From Anaerolineae bacterium (GTDB taxonomy: Bacteria; Chloroflexota; Anaerolineae; Anaerolineales; UBA4823): DNA of 64,000 nucleotides. Under the pieces are notes generated by a model. The model was not told the DNA's origin and searched no databases. It saw only the letters and a list, made by a program, of their open reading frames with translations. The DNA is taken from NCBI GenBank assembly GCA_003130835.1, contig QEXX01000088.1:16715-80714 (forward strand), in the 5' to 3' direction. This document shows, in pieces, positions 29,860-37,961 of this stretch (within the stretch, counting starts at the first letter, position 1; each line of letters begins with the position of its first letter). Position numbers and translations under genes: made by a program.

Positions 29860-32688
29860 TTACCAAGTGGGCAAACAAAGTCGAAAGGCGCTTCCAGCTC
29901 CAATCTTGCTCTCTACCTCGATTTGTCCTTGATGAAGTTCAATGATTTCCTTGACGATCGCCAGTCCTAAACCGGTGCCATGAATCTTGGATTGACGCAC
30001 GGAACGCCCGCGATAAAACCGTTCAAAAATATGGGGTAAATCTTCTTCGCTAATGCCAATGCCGCTATCCCGAATTTCTAGGTAAATCCGCTCGCCATTT
30101 TGCCAACTGGTTACTTTTACCCACCCTGTTGGTGTGTATTGGATAGCATTTCCGATCAGGTTTTGAATTGCTCTCGATAGGTAATGGGCTTCCCCCCGTA
30201 CAACGGCAGGAGCTGAAAGATCGGTTATCAACTCCAAGCCAACTTGTTGAGCCGCCGGGGTGTAAGCGGTTATCGCTTGCTCAACCAACAAATTCAAATC
30301 GACCGGTTCGAATTCAATCTTACGCGTTTTTCCTATCGCCAATCGCGAGAGATCCAAAATATCCTCAACCAGGCGGCGCAACAATTGGCTCTGATCTTTT
30401 AGCACCTGAATATATTCCGTCTTCTTATGCTCTGGTGCTATTTCGAGCAACTCAAGATACAGGCCGATATTTGTCGTCGGCGTGCGCAGTTCATGCGATA
30501 CATCCGCAACAAAGATGTCTTTGAGTCGTTCCAATTCTTTCCGATAGGTAATATCCCGCTGGGTAGCGACATAATTAATGAGTTGACCGTTTTGATCGCG
30601 TACAGGAGCAATCGTAAGAAGGATATCGTAGGGTTCACCATTTTTTCGTTGGTGAAGAAGTTCACCACTCCACACATCGCCTTTTAGCAGTGCAGCTTGG
30701 ATCGCTTCAATTGTAGAGACTGGATTATAGAGACCCAGCCAGTCGAAGTAATTCTGATGGATCAGCTCATGTTCTTCGTAGGAGGTTTGCACTTCCATCG
30801 CATGATTGATCAACTCGATCGAACCATTCAAGTCTGTCACCACCACCCCATCCCCCACACTTGCCAAAATCGCTTCCACCCGTTTCTTAGCTTCAAAAAG
30901 TTCCTTTGTCCGTTCTTGAACACGCAGTTCCAATTCGCTGGCATATTGCTGTAATTGATTCAGCAAGTGGATATTTTCAATCACCGGACCGAGGTTTCGG
31001 GAAACCACGCGTAAGATATCCATATCTTCAGCACTAAAGACATCACCCCCATATTTTGGTCCCAAAGCCAGTAATCCTTTGACAGTTTGATGGCTAATAA
31101 TCGGCACCCATAAATGAGCTTGAGCACTACCTAACAATTGAAATTCTTCGGGTGAGAGTTTCGCTTGTGCAAGGGCATGGGCTATGGTTCTTCTCTCTTC
31201 CTCCCCCACTTTCAAAAGGAATTCAAGGCTGCTTCGGGGCAAAACCGTTGTATCCCCTACTTCAGGATTCTCCTGTAAAACTGCGCCTTCTGGAGCAACC
31301 GCTACCACTGAGAAATCGCCATGAATGTCGGTCAAGAAAATACAGGCATCAGCAATGCGTAAGGTTTTGACTAACCGCTTGCTGACCTCCTTAGCTAATG
31401 CATTCAGATCATTGATATGTTCCAATCCAGAGGTGATTTGCAATACCGCTGAGCGGTAATCATACCAGCCTCCATAAAACAAGGTATCCACCAAGCGCTG
31501 AGTGTAGCGTGAAATGGGTAAAACGCTGGTTGCCAGCAATAAGATGATTAAGGTATTGAGGGCAGGATCAAAAAGCAACTGTTTGGGCAGGAATCGATCG
31601 AAAATTGAAAAAATGCCTAAGTAGATGCCCACCAAAGTAAAAAATACAATCAATACTGTCACCCCTCGATTGATGTGCCGTTCGATTTCAATTAATCGAT
31701 AACGGAAGACCGCATATCCGTAAACCAGCGGTAAAGCTGATAAAAAGATAAAGATAACGGGTGTAGCTAGTAAAGTGCGATTGAGCAAGACTTCTGGTAA
31801 TAAATAGGTGGTAATGAGTGGCAAAGCTGCAAGCAATCCCCCCAATAATACGAGGCGAATCTTGGCACGGGCACTACTGCTGGTTGTGTGTTGGTAGTTA
31901 TAGTGAAGCAAAATGACACAGATCAATAAGTTGAAAGCTAAGAACAACCGCGAGAGTGGCATCAGAAATGAGAGCAAAGGATGGTCTTGGAGGTTAGCTG
32001 TTCCCCAGAGTAGATGCATTATTCCCCCCAGAAAACCGATCAAGTACAAAAGCAGTAAAACTCCTCGACGCTGAAATTGTTTTTTCTCTTGAGGAAAATG
32101 TAAGTGAAAATGCACCGAGATCGGGCCGACGATCCACCAGAGAAAATAATACAGATCAAGCACAATCGAGGGTGCCAAACCAGAGGCTTGTCCAGCCGTG
32201 AGCAATAAGCCTGAAGCTAAAAAGAACCAGAAAAACAAACGCGTTGTTGGAGAGCGCGGTGCATAAGCTTCAACTGCCAGCGCCACAAACAAAAATACCG
32301 CAGCCACAAACAAAGGGGTTAACCTTCGAAGCAATTCAGAGGGAGGCGGAGCAGTCAGCACAACAGGCACAACCACCTTTGCCTCCCCCCTTTGCACAAG
32401 GAAATCAACAGTATCCCCAACATGTTTTCCCCCATACCAAGCTGACGCGTCAGACAATGGCTCACCATCGATCTCCAAGAGAATATCCCCTACCTCAAAA
32501 GACGGAGGCCCTTTGCTTACTGCAACTGCAAGAATTTGATGAGAAGCTGATAAGCCTCGGATGCCATCATCTGGGTACTTGCTGACCAGAATGGCCACCC
32601 AGACGATCACACTAAAAGCGAAAAGCCCGACCAAAAAAGGAAAGCTAAGACGAAGTCTAGGGGAGGGCTGAAAGGGGATTGATTGCAT
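29860..32688 (-). CDS. Sensor histidine kinase: TM-PDZ-multi-TM-GAF-PAS-HisKA-HATPase (ComP-like input)
   Basis: PDZ (GDILLEIDGEP, VGDTVDFLVQRG), about 8 further hydrophobic helices, GAF (LWVPI..GLLALG..FSAED), PAS (GVVVTDLNG), H-box SHELRTP, N-box NLIGNAIQY, G boxes DSGIGI and GTGLGL. Confidence 0.92.
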   Translation of the reverse strand: MQSIPFQPSPRLRLSFPFLVGLFAFSVIVWVAILVSKYPDDGIRGLSASHQILAVAVSKGPPSFEVGDILLEIDGEPLSDASAWYGGKHVGDTVDFLVQRGEAKVVVPVVLTAPPPSELLRRLTPLFVAAVFLFVALAVEAYAPRSPTTRLFFWFFLASGLLLTAGQASGLAPSIVLDLYYFLWWIVGPISVHFHLHFPQEKKQFQRRGVLLLLYLIGFLGGIMHLLWGTANLQDHPLLSFLMPLSRLFLAFNLLICVILLHYNYQHTTSSSARAKIRLVLLGGLLAALPLITTYLLPEVLLNRTLLATPVIFIFLSALPLVYGYAVFRYRLIEIERHINRGVTVLIVFFTLVGIYLGIFSIFDRFLPKQLLFDPALNTLIILLLATSVLPISRYTQRLVDTLFYGGWYDYRSAVLQITSGLEHINDLNALAKEVSKRLVKTLRIADACIFLTDIHGDFSVVAVAPEGAVLQENPEVGDTTVLPRSSLEFLLKVGEEERRTIAHALAQAKLSPEEFQLLGSAQAHLWVPIISHQTVKGLLALGPKYGGDVFSAEDMDILRVVSRNLGPVIENIHLLNQLQQYASELELRVQERTKELFEAKKRVEAILASVGDGVVVTDLNGSIELINHAMEVQTSYEEHELIHQNYFDWLGLYNPVSTIEAIQAALLKGDVWSGELLHQRKNGEPYDILLTIAPVRDQNGQLINYVATQRDITYRKELERLKDIFVADVSHELRTPTTNIGLYLELLEIAPEHKKTEYIQVLKDQSQLLRRLVEDILDLSRLAIGKTRKIEFEPVDLNLLVEQAITAYTPAAQQVGLELITDLSAPAVVRGEAHYLSRAIQNLIGNAIQYTPTGWVKVTSWQNGERIYLEIRDSGIGISEEDLPHIFERFYRGRSVRQSKIHGTGLGLAIVKEIIELHQGQIEVESKIGAGSAFRLCLPTW

Positions 32689-32777
32689 AGGGTTTAGTTT
32701 ACTACGTTATCAGAAGAGGTGCAACTTGAATGTCCAAGCGTCCAAACATCGATGTTGACTGCAGGCTCGAAAATACC

Positions 32778-33782
32778 TTAATTCTCCCCCACCAAGCGAT
32801 TCAGGACACAGATAAGGGTTGCTTGTGCAATTGGTTGCAATCGATTGTTGTGTAAGTGTTTTCGTGCCAACTCAGCTTCCTGAGTCAGCATTGTCATGAT
32901 GTATAAGGCAGCTCCGGTTTGATTGACCCACGCCACATAGCTTTGCCACTCCTCAGGCCGTTCGGCAAGGTTGTCGATTACCCTACGGAAGGCAAGTTTC
33001 TGGTCGTCTGGTAGAACCTCAAGGGTATAAACTGTCGGCAAATTTTTATACCAGTTTAATGAGCGAGACAACGGGCTCTCACCCGCTTGTAGCCGGTGCC
33101 AATCTTCTAAATCGTCCAAAATTTGTAAAATCGACCCCACATGGGAACCAAAGTTCGCTAAATTCTTAACACAGCCTAGATCATCGGTTGCCATCCTCGC
33201 TCCTGCGTAGCAAGCCAAAGAAAAAAACGCACCCGATTTTTTTCGTAACATCTCGAGATAACTGGACAACGAAAATTCTTGGGTGGATAAGTCCTGTTGT
33301 TGTCCCTCGCACATTTCCAACAGTCGCTCTTGAAAGCTCTTCAAGACGCTCGCAACGCGCCTCTTGTCATAATCCTGATCGAGCAATGCCGTCAGAAGGG
33401 CATTTGCGATGAAAAAATAGCTTGAAGCTAGGTTTAACCATTCAGAAAAAGAATAAGGCGTATTGGCTAGGTCAACCCGCTGATCAAAATCTTGAACGCT
33501 ATCCATCAAGTCGGCAGCAAGATAAAACAAGTACCACGCTGCGCTGATCTCAGGCGGGAAATGATCGCTTCCCCCACAAGCTTGATAGGACAAACGGGGA
33601 AAAAGCAAGGTCAAATTACTATTCGAGAAAGATTGAGGACGCGGCGAAAGGCGCGACAAACTTTTCCATATCACCTCCTTAAATGGAGGCGATATGGAAA
33701 AGTTCGCAAAATAAGATTGAATAGTACGAAAAACTAAGTCTAACTCTCGGTTGACAAGCGACTCAAGCTCGTCTATCGCCAT
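32778..33782 (-). CDS. Isoprenyl-diphosphate-synthase-fold protein, ComQ-like peptide prenyltransferase candidate
   Basis: Asp-rich motifs ADLMDSVQD and QILDDLED, GQQQDL, KKSGAF; lacks GKRxRP and post-FARM RRG; start overlaps the upstream peptide gene. Confidence 0.75.
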   Translation of the reverse strand: MAIDELESLVNRELDLVFRTIQSYFANFSISPPFKEVIWKSLSRLSPRPQSFSNSNLTLLFPRLSYQACGGSDHFPPEISAAWYLFYLAADLMDSVQDFDQRVDLANTPYSFSEWLNLASSYFFIANALLTALLDQDYDKRRVASVLKSFQERLLEMCEGQQQDLSTQEFSLSSYLEMLRKKSGAFFSLACYAGARMATDDLGCVKNLANFGSHVGSILQILDDLEDWHRLQAGESPLSRSLNWYKNLPTVYTLEVLPDDQKLAFRRVIDNLAERPEEWQSYVAWVNQTGAALYIMTMLTQEAELARKHLHNNRLQPIAQATLICVLNRLVGEN

Positions 33783-33988
33783 CCGAGATACATTGAAGCC
33801 ACTTCCTGCATTGAGATGAGGTTGCCATCCGCTCGAGTGGATCGTCGCAAGCCATGCGTGAGGAAGGCCTTCTCTTCGTAACTCAGTTGAATCCCTTTCT
33901 CCGCTAAGGCGCCTTCAGGGTCTGTCTGCAGACGCGCAGCAAACTCTGAATCGGTAGAAAGTTGGTAGACGACTTGGGCGAGTGTCAT
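33773..33988 (-). CDS. ComX-like / RiPP precursor peptide (71 aa, penultimate Trp)
   Basis: Strong SD AAGGAGAAAGG; leader-like DSEFAARLQTDPEGALAEKGIQLSYEE; only Trp is in C-terminal YLGWR; 10-bp overlap with the prenyltransferase. Confidence 0.72.
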   Translation of the reverse strand: MTLAQVVYQLSTDSEFAARLQTDPEGALAEKGIQLSYEEKAFLTHGLRRSTRADGNLISMQEVASMYLGWR

Positions 33989-34039
33989 TTTACCTTTCTC
34001 CTTGAATAAAGATATAATATGGTTTGAAATAACAATTTC

Positions 34040-34121
34040 TATTTACCATAAATTGGAGTAAAAGTCAAGTATTTTCCCTAAATATAGGGCAAGAAGCATC
34101 TACAACCCCAATATATTGGGG
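34040..34121 (-). promoter_or_regulatory. Putative precursor promoter with two upstream palindromic operator sites
   Basis: Minus strand TTGACT(34068-34063)-17-TAAATA; palindromes CCCTAAATATAGGG (34076-34089) and CCCCAATATATTGGGG (34106-34121). Confidence 0.55.
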
Positions 34122-34165: not shown

Positions 34166-35065
34166 ATGTCTCTCGAACGAGTTGTAACCATTGACCTCAA
34201 TTTTTTTGGTTTTCCAGGTGCCATTGCCTCTTACCTCGTGCACCTCCCTCATCAAGCCGTCCTGATTGAACCGGGACCCGCAACCACCATTCCCACCCTC
34301 AAGCAGACTTTGGCAGATTTGGACCTTACGCCATCTGACATCCGCGATGTGTTTATTACGCATATTCATCTGGATCACGCCGGAGCAGCGGGGTGGTTGG
34401 CAGAGCAGGGCGCAACCATCCACGTTCATCCCAAAGGTGCCCCGCATCTGATCAATCCAGAAAAATTACTGCAAAGTGCCAGCCGGATCTACGGGGAATT
34501 TATGGATACCCTATGGGGCGAATTCAAGCCGGTGTCCGAGAGCAACATTCACATCCCCCAAGACAACGAGAGGGTATCGATTGATGGCTTTTCTTTTCAA
34601 GTTCTAGACACTCCGGGACATTCCAATCACCATTACTCGATCCTCTTTGAAGGGGTTCTCTTTTCCGGAGATATTGGGGGAATTCGAGTAGGGAACACTC
34701 CTCACATCGAGCTTCCAACTCCACCGCCAGAGTTCAACCCCCAAACGTGGCGGGCTAGCCTTTTGCGCCTGCAGGAATTGGAACTGCGAGCCATTGCGCC
34801 GACCCACTTTGGCATCTATACCGATGTTCAATATCATCTTGACCATCTATTAAGACAATTGGATCAGCTCGAAGAGTGGTTGGAGACTCAAATGTCATCT
34901 AACCCCTCAATTGAGGAACTAAGTGAGGCTTTAGGGCAGTGGCTTAACGCTCAGGGAAGAAGCCAACTGCCCCAATCTTATCAACCGTACTTTACCTACC
35001 TAAACCCAACTTGGATGAGCGCCGCCGGCATTTACCGCTATTGGCATAAAGTCCGTCAAGCCTGA
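34166..35065 (+). CDS. MBL-fold metallo-hydrolase
   Basis: THIHLDHAG (HxHxDH), TPGHSNHH, FSGD, PTHFG; SD AGGAG. Confidence 0.9.
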   Translation: MSLERVVTIDLNFFGFPGAIASYLVHLPHQAVLIEPGPATTIPTLKQTLADLDLTPSDIRDVFITHIHLDHAGAAGWLAEQGATIHVHPKGAPHLINPEKLLQSASRIYGEFMDTLWGEFKPVSESNIHIPQDNERVSIDGFSFQVLDTPGHSNHHYSILFEGVLFSGDIGGIRVGNTPHIELPTPPPEFNPQTWRASLLRLQELELRAIAPTHFGIYTDVQYHLDHLLRQLDQLEEWLETQMSSNPSIEELSEALGQWLNAQGRSQLPQSYQPYFTYLNPTWMSAAGIYRYWHKVRQA

Positions 35066-36108
35066 AAGATTCGATTAAGCTCGTCCAAAGTCTCCCGTTT
35101 CGGTCGTATCTGATCCTCACGCAGCCGATTCAGGGGCGTGTCGGTCAGTTGGTAGATATCCCACATGGACGGTTGATCGGGATCAATGTAGATCAAGCCA
35201 GTAATTAAGCAGTTGCAACGGTTAGCTTCCTCTAGTACTTTCATCGCAGCTTCTCGATCGGTTGGGTCGTAATCTCTACCTAACTTCCGTAAAACGATAA
35301 CAGAACCATCATGCAACTCAACTTCCCTTGTTTCGCCCTCATCGTATTCGAGCAGAATTTCTTCTGCGCGTGGCACATAAGATAACTCATGTAAGGCTGT
35401 TTCGTGATTCTTTCCCCATGCGTAAGAATGGGTTGCAGTGTCAACGTTGTTAAACGTCACACACGGCGAAATGATGTCCAACACCGCAACGCCATTGTGG
35501 TTTAGTGCAGCTTTGATTAATTCCTTAACCTGTTTCGGATCGCCCGCAAATGAACGAGCCACAAAGGTAGCATGCCCTACCAGTGCCTCCCAAGCGATAT
35601 CGATAGGCATATAGGGGTTGATACCATGGGATTTTAGCTCTAAACCTTGATCAGCAGTGGCCGAAAATTGGCCCTTGGTTAAGCCATAAACCCCATTGTT
35701 CTCTACAATATAGACCAATCGCATATTGCGACGCAATAAGTGTTTGAACTGCCCCATACCAATACTAGCCGTATCTCCATCGCCACTAACGCCAATCCCA
35801 CGCAGCGTATGGTCAGCAAAAAGCGCTCCAGTTGCCAACGAAGGCATTCGCCCATGCAAGCCGTTAAAACCGAACGAACGATTGAGAAAATAAAATGGAC
35901 TCTTGCTGGAACAACCAATGCCACTAAACTTAACAATCTCTTCCGGTAGTAAATTAAGCTCGTAGCAAGCAGCAATAATCTGGCTTGAGATCGAATTGTG
36001 ACCACATCCCTGGCACAAGGTCGAAGGATTCCCCCGATAATCGGCTTTGGTTAAACCGATAGCGTTTACAACAACTCGGACATCTGTCGGAGAGGTATGC
36101 TCACTCAT
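35056..36108 (-). CDS. korB: 2-oxoacid:ferredoxin oxidoreductase beta subunit
   Basis: LCQGCGH, SGIGCSSK, HGR, SGDGD TPP motif, NNGVYGLTKGQ.S, SPCVTFN. Confidence 0.92.
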   Translation of the reverse strand: MSEHTSPTDVRVVVNAIGLTKADYRGNPSTLCQGCGHNSISSQIIAACYELNLLPEEIVKFSGIGCSSKSPFYFLNRSFGFNGLHGRMPSLATGALFADHTLRGIGVSGDGDTASIGMGQFKHLLRRNMRLVYIVENNGVYGLTKGQFSATADQGLELKSHGINPYMPIDIAWEALVGHATFVARSFAGDPKQVKELIKAALNHNGVAVLDIISPCVTFNNVDTATHSYAWGKNHETALHELSYVPRAEEILLEYDEGETREVELHDGSVIVLRKLGRDYDPTDREAAMKVLEEANRCNCLITGLIYIDPDQPSMWDIYQLTDTPLNRLREDQIRPKRETLDELNRIFQA

Positions 36109-37936
36109 CTTGTTTCTCCTTAAGAAGGATAAAATCGTAGATCTGTTTTGCCGTCAATGGTAACCCATCGGTATAAGCATAGGAAATCATCTTCGGCGCT
36201 AATTCTGGAAAATGCATTCGTAATAACTGATGCAACTGTCCGTCACGATTCATCTCAATAATATAGTTCCGTTCATATTGAGAACAAATTTCTTTTACGG
36301 TATCCGTAAACGGGTAAGAACGAATGCGAGTAAAATCACTCGCAATGCCTTCATCGTGCAAGAGTGCGCGTGCTTCGCGGATCGCTGGCTCAGTCGAACC
36401 AAAGCTGACCAAATTAATTTGTGCATTGGGCATTTCTTCTACGATCGGTTGAGGTAGCGATGGCTTGAGGGTCTCAAACTTCTTTTTCAACCGATTGAGC
36501 AAGGCATGCCAGTCTTCGGGAGCTTCCGAGTAATTGGCGTATTCATCATGTCCGGTTCCTCGAGTGAAATAAGCTGCTTTAGGATGTCGATTCCCAATCA
36601 CAGTTCGATAGGGGACACCATCTCCATCGACATCCAAGTACCGCGCCCATTTTCCATTTAGCCGCTCTAAATCTTCCTCCCACAATACTTTTCCTCGCTG
36701 CATAGGGCGGTCCGGATACTCAAAGGGTTTTCCCATCCATTGATTCATGCCAAAATCCAAATCGGATAACACGATCACCGGCGTTTGATATTGCTCGGCT
36801 AGGTCAAAGGCTTTCCAAGCAAACTCAAAGCATTCGTTTACTGAACCCGGCATGAGAATAATATTCTGAGTATCACCATGGCCCATAAACGCTACAAAGG
36901 TCAGATCACCTTGTGAAGTGCGGGTCGGCAAGCCGGTGCTGGGTCCAACCCGCTGAATGTCCCAAACCACGACTGGAACCTCAGCAAAATAACCCAAACC
37001 GAGGTACTCTGTCATTAAGCTCAAGCCCGGTCCAGAAGTTGAACTCATTGCCCGTAACCCACCCCATCCGGCACCAATTGCCATTCCAATGGCAGCCAGT
37101 TCATCTTCGGCTTGTACCACCACATACGTATTTTTGCCCGTCTCAGGGTCTTTTCGTAATTTCGGTAAATATGTTTGTAGACTCTCAGCTAAACTGGTCG
37201 CCGGCGTGATCGGATACCAAGAGACAAATTGAACGCCACCGTAAATGGCGCCTAAAGCGGCTGCAGTGTTTCCATCGGTAAGGATCAAACCGGCCGTGGC
37301 ATTCATTGGCTCCAAGAAATACGGGTCTTTCTTTTCCAGGTTCTCTTTCGCCCACTGCGCCGCCAAAGAAACCACACCAAAGTTAATCTCCACCGGTTTA
37401 GCCTTGCCCTTAAAGTGAAACTCGAGCGCTTGACGGATTTTGTCTAAATCAATCCCGATCATTTGGGCTAAGATACCCACATAAACCATATTTGCCACAT
37501 AATCTTTTAAGTAAGCTGGGATGTCCACCTGTCGAATGAGTTGCTTCACCGGCATGGGATACGTCACAATGTCCTCGCGCGTGATCGGTAAGCGAATATC
37601 GTCGGCATAAAAGAAAGCCCCACCCGGCTTTAACGAGGCTAAATCTTGGGTGAAAGTTGCCGGATTCATCGAAATCAAAAGATCCGCCTCGCGTTTGCGC
37701 GCCACAAATCCATGTTTGTTGACTCGAATGGTGTACCAGGTAGGTAATCCTTGAATATTTGAGGGAAAGATGTTTTTCCCTGAAACCGGAATTCCCATCT
37801 TGAAGATGGCACGTAAAATCGCAGCATTAGAAGTCTGCGAACCAGAGCCATTCACAGTAGCGACCGTAATCGAGAAATCATTGATGATTTTCGTCCCTGT
37901 CTCTATTTGCTCATCCGTAAGAATCTTTGTTTTCAT
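36101..37936 (-). CDS. korA: 2-oxoacid:ferredoxin oxidoreductase alpha subunit (gamma-alpha fusion)
   Basis: NGSGSQT, FPSNIQG, YPITPAT, QAEDELAA, TSGPGLSLM, QRVGPSTGLPT. Confidence 0.92.
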   Translation of the reverse strand: MKTKILTDEQIETGTKIINDFSITVATVNGSGSQTSNAAILRAIFKMGIPVSGKNIFPSNIQGLPTWYTIRVNKHGFVARKREADLLISMNPATFTQDLASLKPGGAFFYADDIRLPITREDIVTYPMPVKQLIRQVDIPAYLKDYVANMVYVGILAQMIGIDLDKIRQALEFHFKGKAKPVEINFGVVSLAAQWAKENLEKKDPYFLEPMNATAGLILTDGNTAAALGAIYGGVQFVSWYPITPATSLAESLQTYLPKLRKDPETGKNTYVVVQAEDELAAIGMAIGAGWGGLRAMSSTSGPGLSLMTEYLGLGYFAEVPVVVWDIQRVGPSTGLPTRTSQGDLTFVAFMGHGDTQNIILMPGSVNECFEFAWKAFDLAEQYQTPVIVLSDLDFGMNQWMGKPFEYPDRPMQRGKVLWEEDLERLNGKWARYLDVDGDGVPYRTVIGNRHPKAAYFTRGTGHDEYANYSEAPEDWHALLNRLKKKFETLKPSLPQPIVEEMPNAQINLVSFGSTEPAIREARALLHDEGIASDFTRIRSYPFTDTVKEICSQYERNYIIEMNRDGQLHQLLRMHFPELAPKMISYAYTDGLPLTAKQIYDFILLKEKQDE

Positions 37937-37961
37937 CAAAAACTCCTTAAGTCACTGATCT

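Follow-up and report, generated by a model that had tools for sequence, protein, structure and literature searches.

A cassette that may specify a prenylated peptide pheromone together with its receptor was found in a 64,000-nucleotide stretch of contig QEXX01000088.1 from an Anaerolineae bacterium (hereafter, the window). It consists of genes for a 71-aa precursor peptide, an enzyme with an isoprenyl diphosphate synthase (IPPS) fold, and a large membrane-bound sensor histidine kinase, which are denoted X, Q, and P, respectively, after ComX, ComQ, and ComP. With a probability of roughly 0.6, the locus is a peptide-pheromone-like cassette of the ComQXP or PalPXQ kind, as represented by ComQXP of Bacillus and PalP-PalX-PalQ of Paenibacillus alvei. 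This assignment is based on the conservation of the three genes as a unit, a tryptophan (Trp) retained close to the C-terminus of the peptide, the replacement of residues typical of chain-elongating synthases in the enzyme family, and the homology of the kinase sensor to that of ComP.

The peptide, enzyme, and kinase genes are all located on the minus strand of the window and are co-oriented, with the same coordinates as in the initial annotation. That annotation had described a 71-aa open reading frame (ORF) preceded by a Shine-Dalgarno sequence, with a sole, penultimate Trp and a 10-bp overlap with the enzyme gene, all of which were read again from the sequence: the ATG of the enzyme gene (33782-33780) resides inside GGATGG, the Gly69-Trp70 codons of the peptide gene. 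The gene order X-Q-P, a kinase output module differing from that of ComP, and the lack of an adjacent regulator were likewise found on inspection of the window ORFs and their Pfam matches, and the proposed isoprenyl-synthase fold of the enzyme and ComP-like input of the kinase were borne out by the analyses presented below. The features of the cassette are as follows.

33773..33988, minus strand: precursor peptide gene (71 aa, ending ...SMYLGWR; leader at approximately residues 1-45 and variable tail at residues 46-71)
33781-33779, minus strand: Trp70 codon of the peptide gene (single Trp of the ORF, followed by one residue, R71)
33998..34003, minus strand: Shine-Dalgarno sequence AAGGAG, 9 nt 5' of the peptide ATG (33988), read from the sequence
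32778..33782, minus strand: gene for the trans-IPPS-fold enzyme (334 aa), a predicted peptide Trp prenyltransferase (from PF00348, fold, and family alignment)
29860..32688, minus strand: sensor histidine kinase gene (942 aa), with a ComP-type sensor fused to GAF-PAS-HisKA-HATPase
32344..32580, minus strand: PDZ domain of the kinase, predicted to be extracytoplasmic (residues 37-115, flanked by transmembrane helices one and two, TM1 and TM2)
31489..32343, minus strand: kinase membrane bundle of about nine helices (residues 116-400)
29869..31410, minus strand: cytoplasmic kinase domains (GAF 427-571, PAS 603-717, HisKA 723-783, and HATPase_c 835-940; Pfam)

A scan of species-representative genomes detected 27 related loci (designated by L numbers), all of which belong to Chloroflexota and mostly to Anaerolineales. 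A homologous small ORF directly adjoins the enzyme gene on its upstream side in 25 of the 27 loci, and the other two (L003 and L027) begin at the enzyme gene and contain no upstream DNA. A kinase homologue is located directly downstream of the enzyme gene, also in 25 of the 27; one of the others, L005, ends 5 bp past the enzyme match. The peptide, the enzyme, and the kinase thus form a conserved unit, syntenic in about 25 Chloroflexota loci.

The 25 loci with upstream DNA contain 30 peptide genes in total, including tandem copies in L010 (two), L013 (two), and L014 (four). These tandem precursors (L010:1789-2247, L013:2361-2821, and L014:4969-5994) are each accompanied by one enzyme gene and have near-identical leaders and slightly different tails (GWM or GWK). 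When the peptide gene of the window was compared with 12 relatives of equal length, 246, 182, and 501 differences were found at codon positions 1, 2, and 3, respectively, and its closest relative differs by 22 synonymous and 4 non-synonymous codon changes. A profile search retrieved 294 homologous small proteins at E <= 0.001, those with names being designated 'hypothetical protein'. Judged from these comparisons, the small ORF is a real conserved gene, beyond what chance would give, because its position upstream of the enzyme gene is conserved, its substitutions are biased by codon position, and it has 294 profile homologues.

In an alignment of 27 of the 31 peptides (one L013 copy, two L014 copies, and that of L026 were omitted), W70 is invariant (27/27), the leader is highly conserved, and the tail is variable, with the Trp near the C-terminus as its sole invariant residue. 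Of the 30 locus peptides, 27 carry this Trp at the penultimate position; two residues follow it in L019 and L023, and in L024 it is internal. Among the 120 homologues listed of the 294, the last Trp falls within the final three residues in every case (at -1 in 6, at -2 in 86, and at -3 in 28).

The N-terminal 44 residues of the peptide match the NCBIfam model NF038399 (38.8 bits; E = 7.4e-10), and weaker matches were obtained to the leader models TIGR04509 (E = 4e-5) and TIGR03793 (E = 0.027). By these matches, all of which stay below the curated cut-offs, the leader is clearly NHLP-clan-like, a type found in peptides that ribosomes synthesize and that are modified after translation (RiPPs). 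For the comparison with ComQXPA, annotated comQ-comX(-kinase) loci on plasmids of Anoxybacillus (L061) and Lysinibacillus (L060) were used. The ComX family model PF05952 gave no match to the 71-aa peptide but 72 bits for the ComX of L061 and 37 bits for that of L060, and hhalign of the peptide alignment against a ComX returned a probability of 0.6%; on this basis, the peptide is unrelated to ComX. The genome of the window carries only one copy of the peptide. In the class, peptide-profile matches were found in 19 of 401 sampled genomes, a count that takes in the genome of the window and one unpublished genome (G346). Because only about six of these matches are full-length, most being restricted to the leader, the system appears to be patchy within the class. 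The leader-only matches probably belong to other NHLP peptides. Many of the matches in L040-L059 are limited to positions 1-50, which suggests that NHLP-type precursors with different tails are present in the class.

The enzyme matches PF00348 above the cut-off (54.9 bits), and its AlphaFold2 model (predicted local distance difference test score, pLDDT, 89.9) adopts a trans-IPPS fold, with template-modelling scores of 0.76-0.79 to geranylgeranyl diphosphate (GGPP) and polyprenyl synthases. The indole prenyltransferase Ord1 ranks ninth by structure and is the best solved match by sequence (E = 1e-10). A database search yielded 42 relatives of the enzyme at E <= 0.001, and those with names are from Anaerolineales bacteria; the protein atlas clusters near the enzyme are generic polyprenyl-synthetase clusters, which serve as a lead only. 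Searching plasmids with tblastn returned 19 weak matches, including the two comQ-comX loci of Anoxybacillus and Lysinibacillus, one menaquinone HepT-type synthase, and one unannotated stretch from Stenotrophomonas.

Two canonical synthases are encoded elsewhere in the genome, with PF00348 scores of 224.6 and 198.6 bits versus 54.9 for the enzyme. Alignment with both of them revealed that three motifs are missing from the enzyme family, namely GGKRxR, the RRG that follows the first aspartate motif, and the GK..D..K that follows the second, and that the second Asp of the first motif is replaced by Ser in the enzyme. The basic residues with which canonical enzymes bind isopentenyl diphosphate (IPP) are replaced in all 22 aligned family members. 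The residues lost are those that bind IPP and diphosphate in chain-elongating synthases. Invariant residues of the family include D94 and D98 (first motif), G160/Q161, GQ..D, K182, Q220, and D223/D224 (second motif, DDLED). The enzyme is an isoprenyl-synthase-fold protein that is seemingly unfit for chain elongation. As a separate observation, the GGPP synthase-like gene of the genome (L029:314-2361, contig C49) is located directly after a gene resembling type 2 IPP isomerase, as read from its sequence.

In a model of the enzyme-peptide complex, the interface score ipSAE was 0.69, versus 0.02 for the best of three controls; in its calibration, 58 of 80 solved complexes and 2 of 110 mismatched pairs attained that mark. 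At least 93% of the contacts agreed in the complex runs, and the pLDDT of the partner was at least 77. The leader helix of the peptide (residues 2-12) is placed on enzyme residues 249-256 and 283-304, and the tail (residues 57-71) lies against residues 219-229, which contain the second aspartate motif. The model supports enzyme-peptide binding, as a prediction that was built on alignments of our own and cannot show binding.

Pfam matches to the kinase comprise a weak PDZ domain (residues 51-106; E = 0.013) as well as GAF, PAS, HisKA, and HATPase_c, and the PDZ_2 match falls at E = 0.007-0.013. When the sensor part alone was searched against Pfam and NCBIfam, nothing other than the weak PDZ match was obtained. 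The AlphaFold2 model of residues 1-430 (pLDDT 83.4) contains TM1, a beta domain (residues 43-110), and nine more long helices, giving ten in total. The beta domain was superimposed by VIA-align onto the PDZ domain of DegS (4rqy_B) with a Z score of 10.3 and a root mean square deviation of 2.0 A over 77 residues. The protein atlas clusters near the sensor carry PDZ or HisKA_7TM domains (again as a lead only). In the bundle, H193, H195, N340, and R341 are invariant, and an FYGGWYDYR motif is located at its exit.

A profile of the sensor matched the ComP encoded by the comQ-comX-kinase locus of Anoxybacillus (hhalign probability 96.7%; E = 4e-10; 334 columns), and the alignment covers both the PDZ domain and the helix bundle. 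The score of the real comparison was 80.8, versus 14.7 for the reversed sequence and at most 22.1 for 20 local shuffles. Because the match stands against these reversed and shuffled controls, the sensor is ComP-type, i.e. truly homologous to the sensor of a ComP encoded beside comQ-comX. The PDZ domain is predicted to reside on the outer side of the membrane because of the positive-inside N-terminus, the even number of helices, and the topology of Bacillus ComP, which was described in a modelling paper (PMC9620489) as having ten transmembrane segments with the PDZ domain between TM1 and TM2. In seven of seven comparisons, conservation is lower in the sensor half than in the cytoplasmic half (e.g. 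76.6 versus 83.9% identity). A Foldseek search of the sensor against the PDB returned nothing at E <= 0.001. The helix bundle (31489-32343) also aligns with seven-transmembrane receptors, alkaline ceramidase 3, and Myomaker (Z = 10-13.6). Such values are reachable by the arrangement of a helical bundle alone, and no kinship with seven-transmembrane receptors is claimed.

Two variants of the transmitter were found among the 27 loci. In the distant loci L024, L025, and L027, the kinase has the organization PDZ/bundle-GAF-HisKA_3 (about 810 aa), and in L024 it is followed by a REC-GerE regulator of the NarL/LuxR type, producing an X-Q-P-A arrangement. A NarL/LuxR-type regulator sharing 46% identity with that of L024 is also present in L025 (L025:2670-3335), approximately 2.3 kb upstream of the peptide gene; thus, the regulator may be near rather than adjacent in this variant. 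In L015, L016, L019, and L023, which contain kinases of the same type as the window, a REC-HD_5 regulator gene directly follows the kinase gene. An adjacent regulator of either type was found in no further locus, as examined in 10 downstream ORFs by Pfam and, by BLAST, in every ORF of the loci. Five close relatives have the same kinase/pyrophosphorylase gene downstream as the window. In L015 (7509-9910), L019 (6986-9834), and L023 (7554-9971), three loci from metagenome-assembled genomes that also carry the adjacent REC-HD-GYP regulator, the kinase either is broken into two or three ORFs or has no N-terminus; these could represent assembly frameshifts or decaying genes.

The genome of the window encodes exactly one full-length REC-HD_5 orthologue (56% identity over residues 1-326), with matches to PF00072 and PF13487 and the motif HHERWDGNGYP. 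This orphan regulator has no adjoining kinase gene, its neighbours being genes for an S58 peptidase, a YkuD protein, and an SPFH protein. Four related loci have an orthologue of it immediately after the kinase gene, which makes it the best candidate for the partner of the kinase in the window. Part of a CRISPR-Cas locus, including genes for a Cas3-like helicase/HD protein, Cas5d, and a WYL/WCX regulator, was also noted near the orphan regulator gene (L038:1-5049, contig C136).

Prenylated-tryptophan peptide pheromones were long regarded as a peculiarity of Bacillus. The cassette shares with ComQXPA the combination of a precursor that bears a Trp, a predicted prenyltransferase of the IPPS fold, and a membrane kinase with a homologous sensor composed of PDZ and bundle; a likeness to ComP-ComA (HisKA_3 with an adjacent NarL/LuxR-type regulator) is seen only in the sister variant L024. 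In contrast, the precursor is unrelated to the ComX family (PF05952), and its Trp is penultimate, whereas that of ComX is internal. The enzyme is not specifically of the ComQ clade, and its second motif is DDLED rather than NDxxx. The gene order is X-Q-P instead of Q-X-P-A, the transmitter is GAF-PAS-HisKA (PF00512) instead of HisKA_3, and no regulator is adjacent in the window. RpfC/RpfG of Xanthomonas mediates signalling by the diffusible signal factor and uses an HD-GYP response regulator acting as a cyclic di-GMP (c-di-GMP) phosphodiesterase. The Anaerolineales system resembles it in the REC-HD-GYP regulator that follows the kinase in four related loci and in the orphan orthologue of the genome, which contains HHExxDGxGYP. 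The signal would, however, be a prenylated peptide and not a fatty acid, and the pairing is deduced from the synteny of relatives.

In PalP-PalX-PalQ of Paenibacillus alvei (Miyata, Ito, Fujinami, Adv Sci 2023/24, PMC10853753), a kinase, an NHLP precursor, and an IPPS-like Trp prenyltransferase are encoded together. In vitro, PalQ prenylates the C-terminal Trp of PalX at C3 with formation of a pyrroloindoline, the NHLP domain enhances turnover, and a Gly before the Trp is favoured; PalX ends in its Trp, and PalQ loses its activity on any extended form (PMC10853753). PalQ lies outside the ComQ cluster and contains the motifs D89/D93, Q197, and D200/D204 (PMC10853753). The present locus resembles PalPXQ in its trio of a kinase, a precursor with an NHLP-like leader and a conserved Trp in the C-terminal region, and an enzyme of the IPPS superfamily. 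The motifs D-x3-D and Q-x-x-D-x3-D are also shared (here D94/D98, Q220, and D223/D227), as compared by the reported motif pattern, and a Gly preceding the Trp is common (GWR and GWM). The two systems differ in phylum (Bacillota versus Chloroflexota) and in the position of the Trp, W70 here being followed by R71, with a terminal Trp in only 6 of the 120 listed homologues.

In Sphaerobacter thermophilus, StheQ prenylates the penultimate Trp of the 69-aa StheX, and its crystal structure contains one Mg2+ at the first motif (Matsui et al., bioRxiv 10.64898/2026.08.29.745113). StheQX shares with the cassette its phylum (Chloroflexota), a similar precursor size, a penultimate Trp, and an IPPS-fold enzyme gene adjoining the peptide gene. 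It differs in its pseudo second motif N215-D216 (DDLED here, with D223 invariant) and in the order of the genes, Q then X, instead of X then Q with a 10-bp overlap. A kinase and NHLP are each mentioned 0 times in the accessible text of the preprint. According to the same two sources, the biological roles of the PalX and StheX products are not known (PMC10853753; bioRxiv 10.64898/2026.08.29.745113), and a 2026 review lists ComQ, the P domain of ChrPC, and PalQ as peptide prenyltransferases resembling trans-isoprenyl diphosphate synthases (PMC13290415). In the literature searched, no paper linked Anaerolineae with PalQ/StheQ-type tryptophan prenyltransferases or with NHLP.

The locus combines an NHLP-like leader and an adjacent kinase, as in the PalX system, the penultimate Trp and phylum of StheX, and the sensor of ComP. 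Features of its own are the X-Q-P order with overlapping genes, the GAF-PAS-HisKA transmitter, a conserved metallo-beta-lactamase (MBL) neighbour, and HD-GYP as the likely output. Its closest resemblance is to PalPXQ and StheQX rather than ComQXPA, and this kind of system is already known. The analogy to ComQXP drawn in the initial annotation thus holds for the conserved unit, the enzyme fold, the Trp, and the sensor and fails for the peptide, which is not ComX-like, and for the enzyme, which is no nearer to ComQ than to GGPP synthases. The ComQ homologue that it mentioned for Sphaerobacter corresponds to StheQ (with StheX), and the Chloroflexota-wide synteny of peptide (Trp), enzyme, and PDZ kinase that it suggested looking for is now seen in about 25 loci, the Trp being kept in all of the aligned peptides. 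The novelty is smaller than first judged because the PalP/PalX/PalQ trio was published in 2023. Quorum sensing would be a putative function, for the cassette as for the PalQ and StheQ systems.

Two further features are located upstream of the peptide gene.

34014..34041, minus strand: promoter-like site TAGAAA-16-TATTAT (9 of 12), a weak call
34166..35065, plus strand: gene for an MBL-fold protein (299 aa), divergent from the peptide gene (PF00753 at 91 bits)

Of the 27 related loci, 17 have a homologue of the MBL-fold gene (48-80% identity) in the same divergent position upstream of the peptide gene, among them distant loci whose other flanks differ. Only the generic PF00753 family was matched, and no NCBIfam model reaches its cut-off. 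The protein is a possible fourth component of the cassette. Upstream of the MBL gene, two large ORFs of 350 and 612 aa on the minus strand (35056-37939) are conserved in size and position in the close relatives L001-L006 and resemble, on reading their sequences, subunits of 2-oxoacid:ferredoxin oxidoreductase. The promoter-like match is insignificant by itself because the scan detected 2 sites in the region versus 6.6 expected in shuffles; the terminator scan likewise gave fewer sites than shuffles.

A hairpin at 33745-33788 (minus strand) encloses the stop codon of the peptide gene and the start codon of the enzyme gene, and the 131-nt stretch folds at z = -3.5. Only the five closest sequences preserve its stem, which is absent from L006 and L007, and covariation is weak. 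The hairpin was rejected as an established element; it may be a coupling or attenuation element at the stop/start overlap. Four metatranscriptome runs from one microbial-mat sample hold 37-41% of the sampled words of the stretch. In three of them, separate contigs over the peptide gene (33704-33993, 33758-34012, and 33702-33937), which cover the whole gene, had depths of 85-125, whereas contigs over the enzyme and kinase genes had depths of 2-11. The gap between the enzyme and kinase genes is bridged by a contig (32393-32945). Contig ends fall near the hairpin at 33702-33704 (two runs) and at 33758, and one contig runs into adapter letters past its end at 34012, which counts as no more than a hint. 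The depth contrast is as a highly expressed RiPP precursor would give, and it is taken as a hint, since contigs assembled from one sample are no proof of transcription, strand, or level; identical peptide genes in relatives could raise the depth, and uncovered stretches carry no information.

The following mechanism is proposed. The 71-aa precursor would be made in excess, and its NHLP-like leader would dock on the IPPS-fold enzyme. With its aspartate motifs, the enzyme would bind an allylic prenyl diphosphate (C10-C15 being probable) and transfer the prenyl group to the indole of W70, a reaction known in vitro for PalQ, StheQ, and ComQ. After removal of the leader, a short lipidated C-terminal peptide would leave the cell and be sensed from outside by the co-encoded kinase through its extracytoplasmic PDZ domain and 10-helix bundle. 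The kinase would then phosphorylate a regulator encoded elsewhere, the best candidate being the REC-HD-GYP protein of the c-di-GMP phosphodiesterase type. Among these steps, prenylation of W70 is likely, the donor length and the site being deduced from the comparisons; signalling through the kinase is plausible, with odds slightly better than even; and a c-di-GMP output is speculative. In a wider scenario, uncultured Anaerolineales of microbial mats would employ a diffusible ComX-like prenyl-Trp signal, with the PDZ domain reading the free C-terminus, G-W(prenyl)-X-COOH, and the lipid entering the bundle. The output would be c-di-GMP turnover through REC-HD-GYP rather than transcription, one sensor-peptide-enzyme module would be combined across the family with exchangeable transmitters, either HisKA_3 plus a LuxR-type regulator or GAF-PAS-HisKA plus HD-GYP, and the MBL-fold hydrolase would mature or degrade the signal. 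Taken as a whole, this scenario is tentative and rather doubtful.

Several observations weigh against the assignment as a pheromone-like cassette. PalQ accepts no residue after the Trp, whereas the peptide has one, StheQ being the sole precedent for a penultimate Trp. The peptide scores below every curated cut-off of the NHLP models, including the cut-off of 40 for NF038399. The second DDxxD motif of the enzyme is intact, unlike the NDxxx of ComQ, and the conserved Q220 does not discriminate because canonical synthases carry Q as well; therefore, the motif argument rests mainly on the lost IPP-binding residues. The enzyme-family profile scored 111 and 99 for the ComQs, 128 for the GGPP synthase-like protein of the genome, and 77 for its long-chain synthase. 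By these scores, the enzyme is no closer to ComQ than to the GGPP synthase-like protein. No response regulator gene adjoins the cassette among the ORFs checked in the window, no protease or exporter gene is present within the cassette, the link to the orphan REC-HD-GYP regulator relies on adjacency in only 4 of the 27 loci, and L009 contains approximately 850 bp 3' of the enzyme gene without a kinase match. The limits of the complex prediction and of the RNA contigs stated above count here as well.

The intact second motif, the PF00348 match above the cut-off, and the best enzyme-profile score going to the GGPP synthase-like protein of the genome would also suit an ordinary or specialised isoprenyl diphosphate synthase, or another isoprenoid maker, beside an unrelated NHLP-type peptide that is otherwise modified or unmodified. 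We consider this very improbable: the basic IPP-binding residues are replaced throughout the aligned family, the genome has two canonical synthases elsewhere, the start codon of the enzyme gene lies inside the Gly-Trp codons of the peptide gene, the enzyme gene always occurs with a Trp-tailed peptide in loci having upstream DNA, and the predicted complex passes its controls. If the peptide is prenylated, it may instead stay cell-associated, as a lipid-anchored ligand, either intracellular or in the membrane, or a chaperone-like partner of the kinase rather than a diffusible signal. NHLP leaders are normally removed by C39-type transporters (NHLP/PCAT systems), and the lack of an exporter or leader protease gene nearby fits this alternative, as does the absence of a Peptidase_C39 match in the genome, which is 94.4% complete, so that the negative result is not proof of absence. 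The placement of the PDZ domain between TM1 and TM2 on the outer side argues against it, and ComX leaves the cell although its operon encodes no dedicated transporter; a cell-associated role is accordingly rated as improbable.

The product could also be a membrane-active or antimicrobial lipopeptide, with the kinase sensing something else, e.g. envelope stress or the producer's own product for immunity or autoregulation. Membrane activity is known for prenylated peptides, and antimicrobial peptides prenylated by PalQ gain activity, as stated in a review. The roles of the PalX and StheX products leave room for such an activity, and the tandem precursors in L010, L013, and L014 and the high depth of precursor RNA are traits of antimicrobial RiPPs. 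Genes for immunity, ABC exporters, and proteases were, however, not found in the loci examined, and the sensor shares homology with that of ComP, which is known to receive a prenylated peptide. Enzyme and kinase are linked in 25 of the 27 loci, and the sensor half of the kinase diverges faster than its cytoplasmic half in all seven comparisons, in step with the variable tail of the peptide. An antimicrobial product is thus regarded as unlikely, and the assignment as a pheromone-like cassette is preferred.

The peptide family is large, with its 294 peptide clusters almost entirely unannotated, and as judged from sequence it may offer Trp prenyltransferases that accept a penultimate Trp and would be useful for peptide lipidation. 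For PalQ and StheQ, the enzyme alone was characterised. In Anaerolineales, the enzyme and the Trp-tailed precursor travel with a receptor kinase that has a ComP-homologous sensor, which supports sensing of the product and provides a testable receptor-ligand pair. The two transmitter/regulator variants suggest that one sensing module has been rewired to different outputs, c-di-GMP included. If this is true, prenyl-peptide sensing would be an old modular signalling device common to Bacillota and Chloroflexota.

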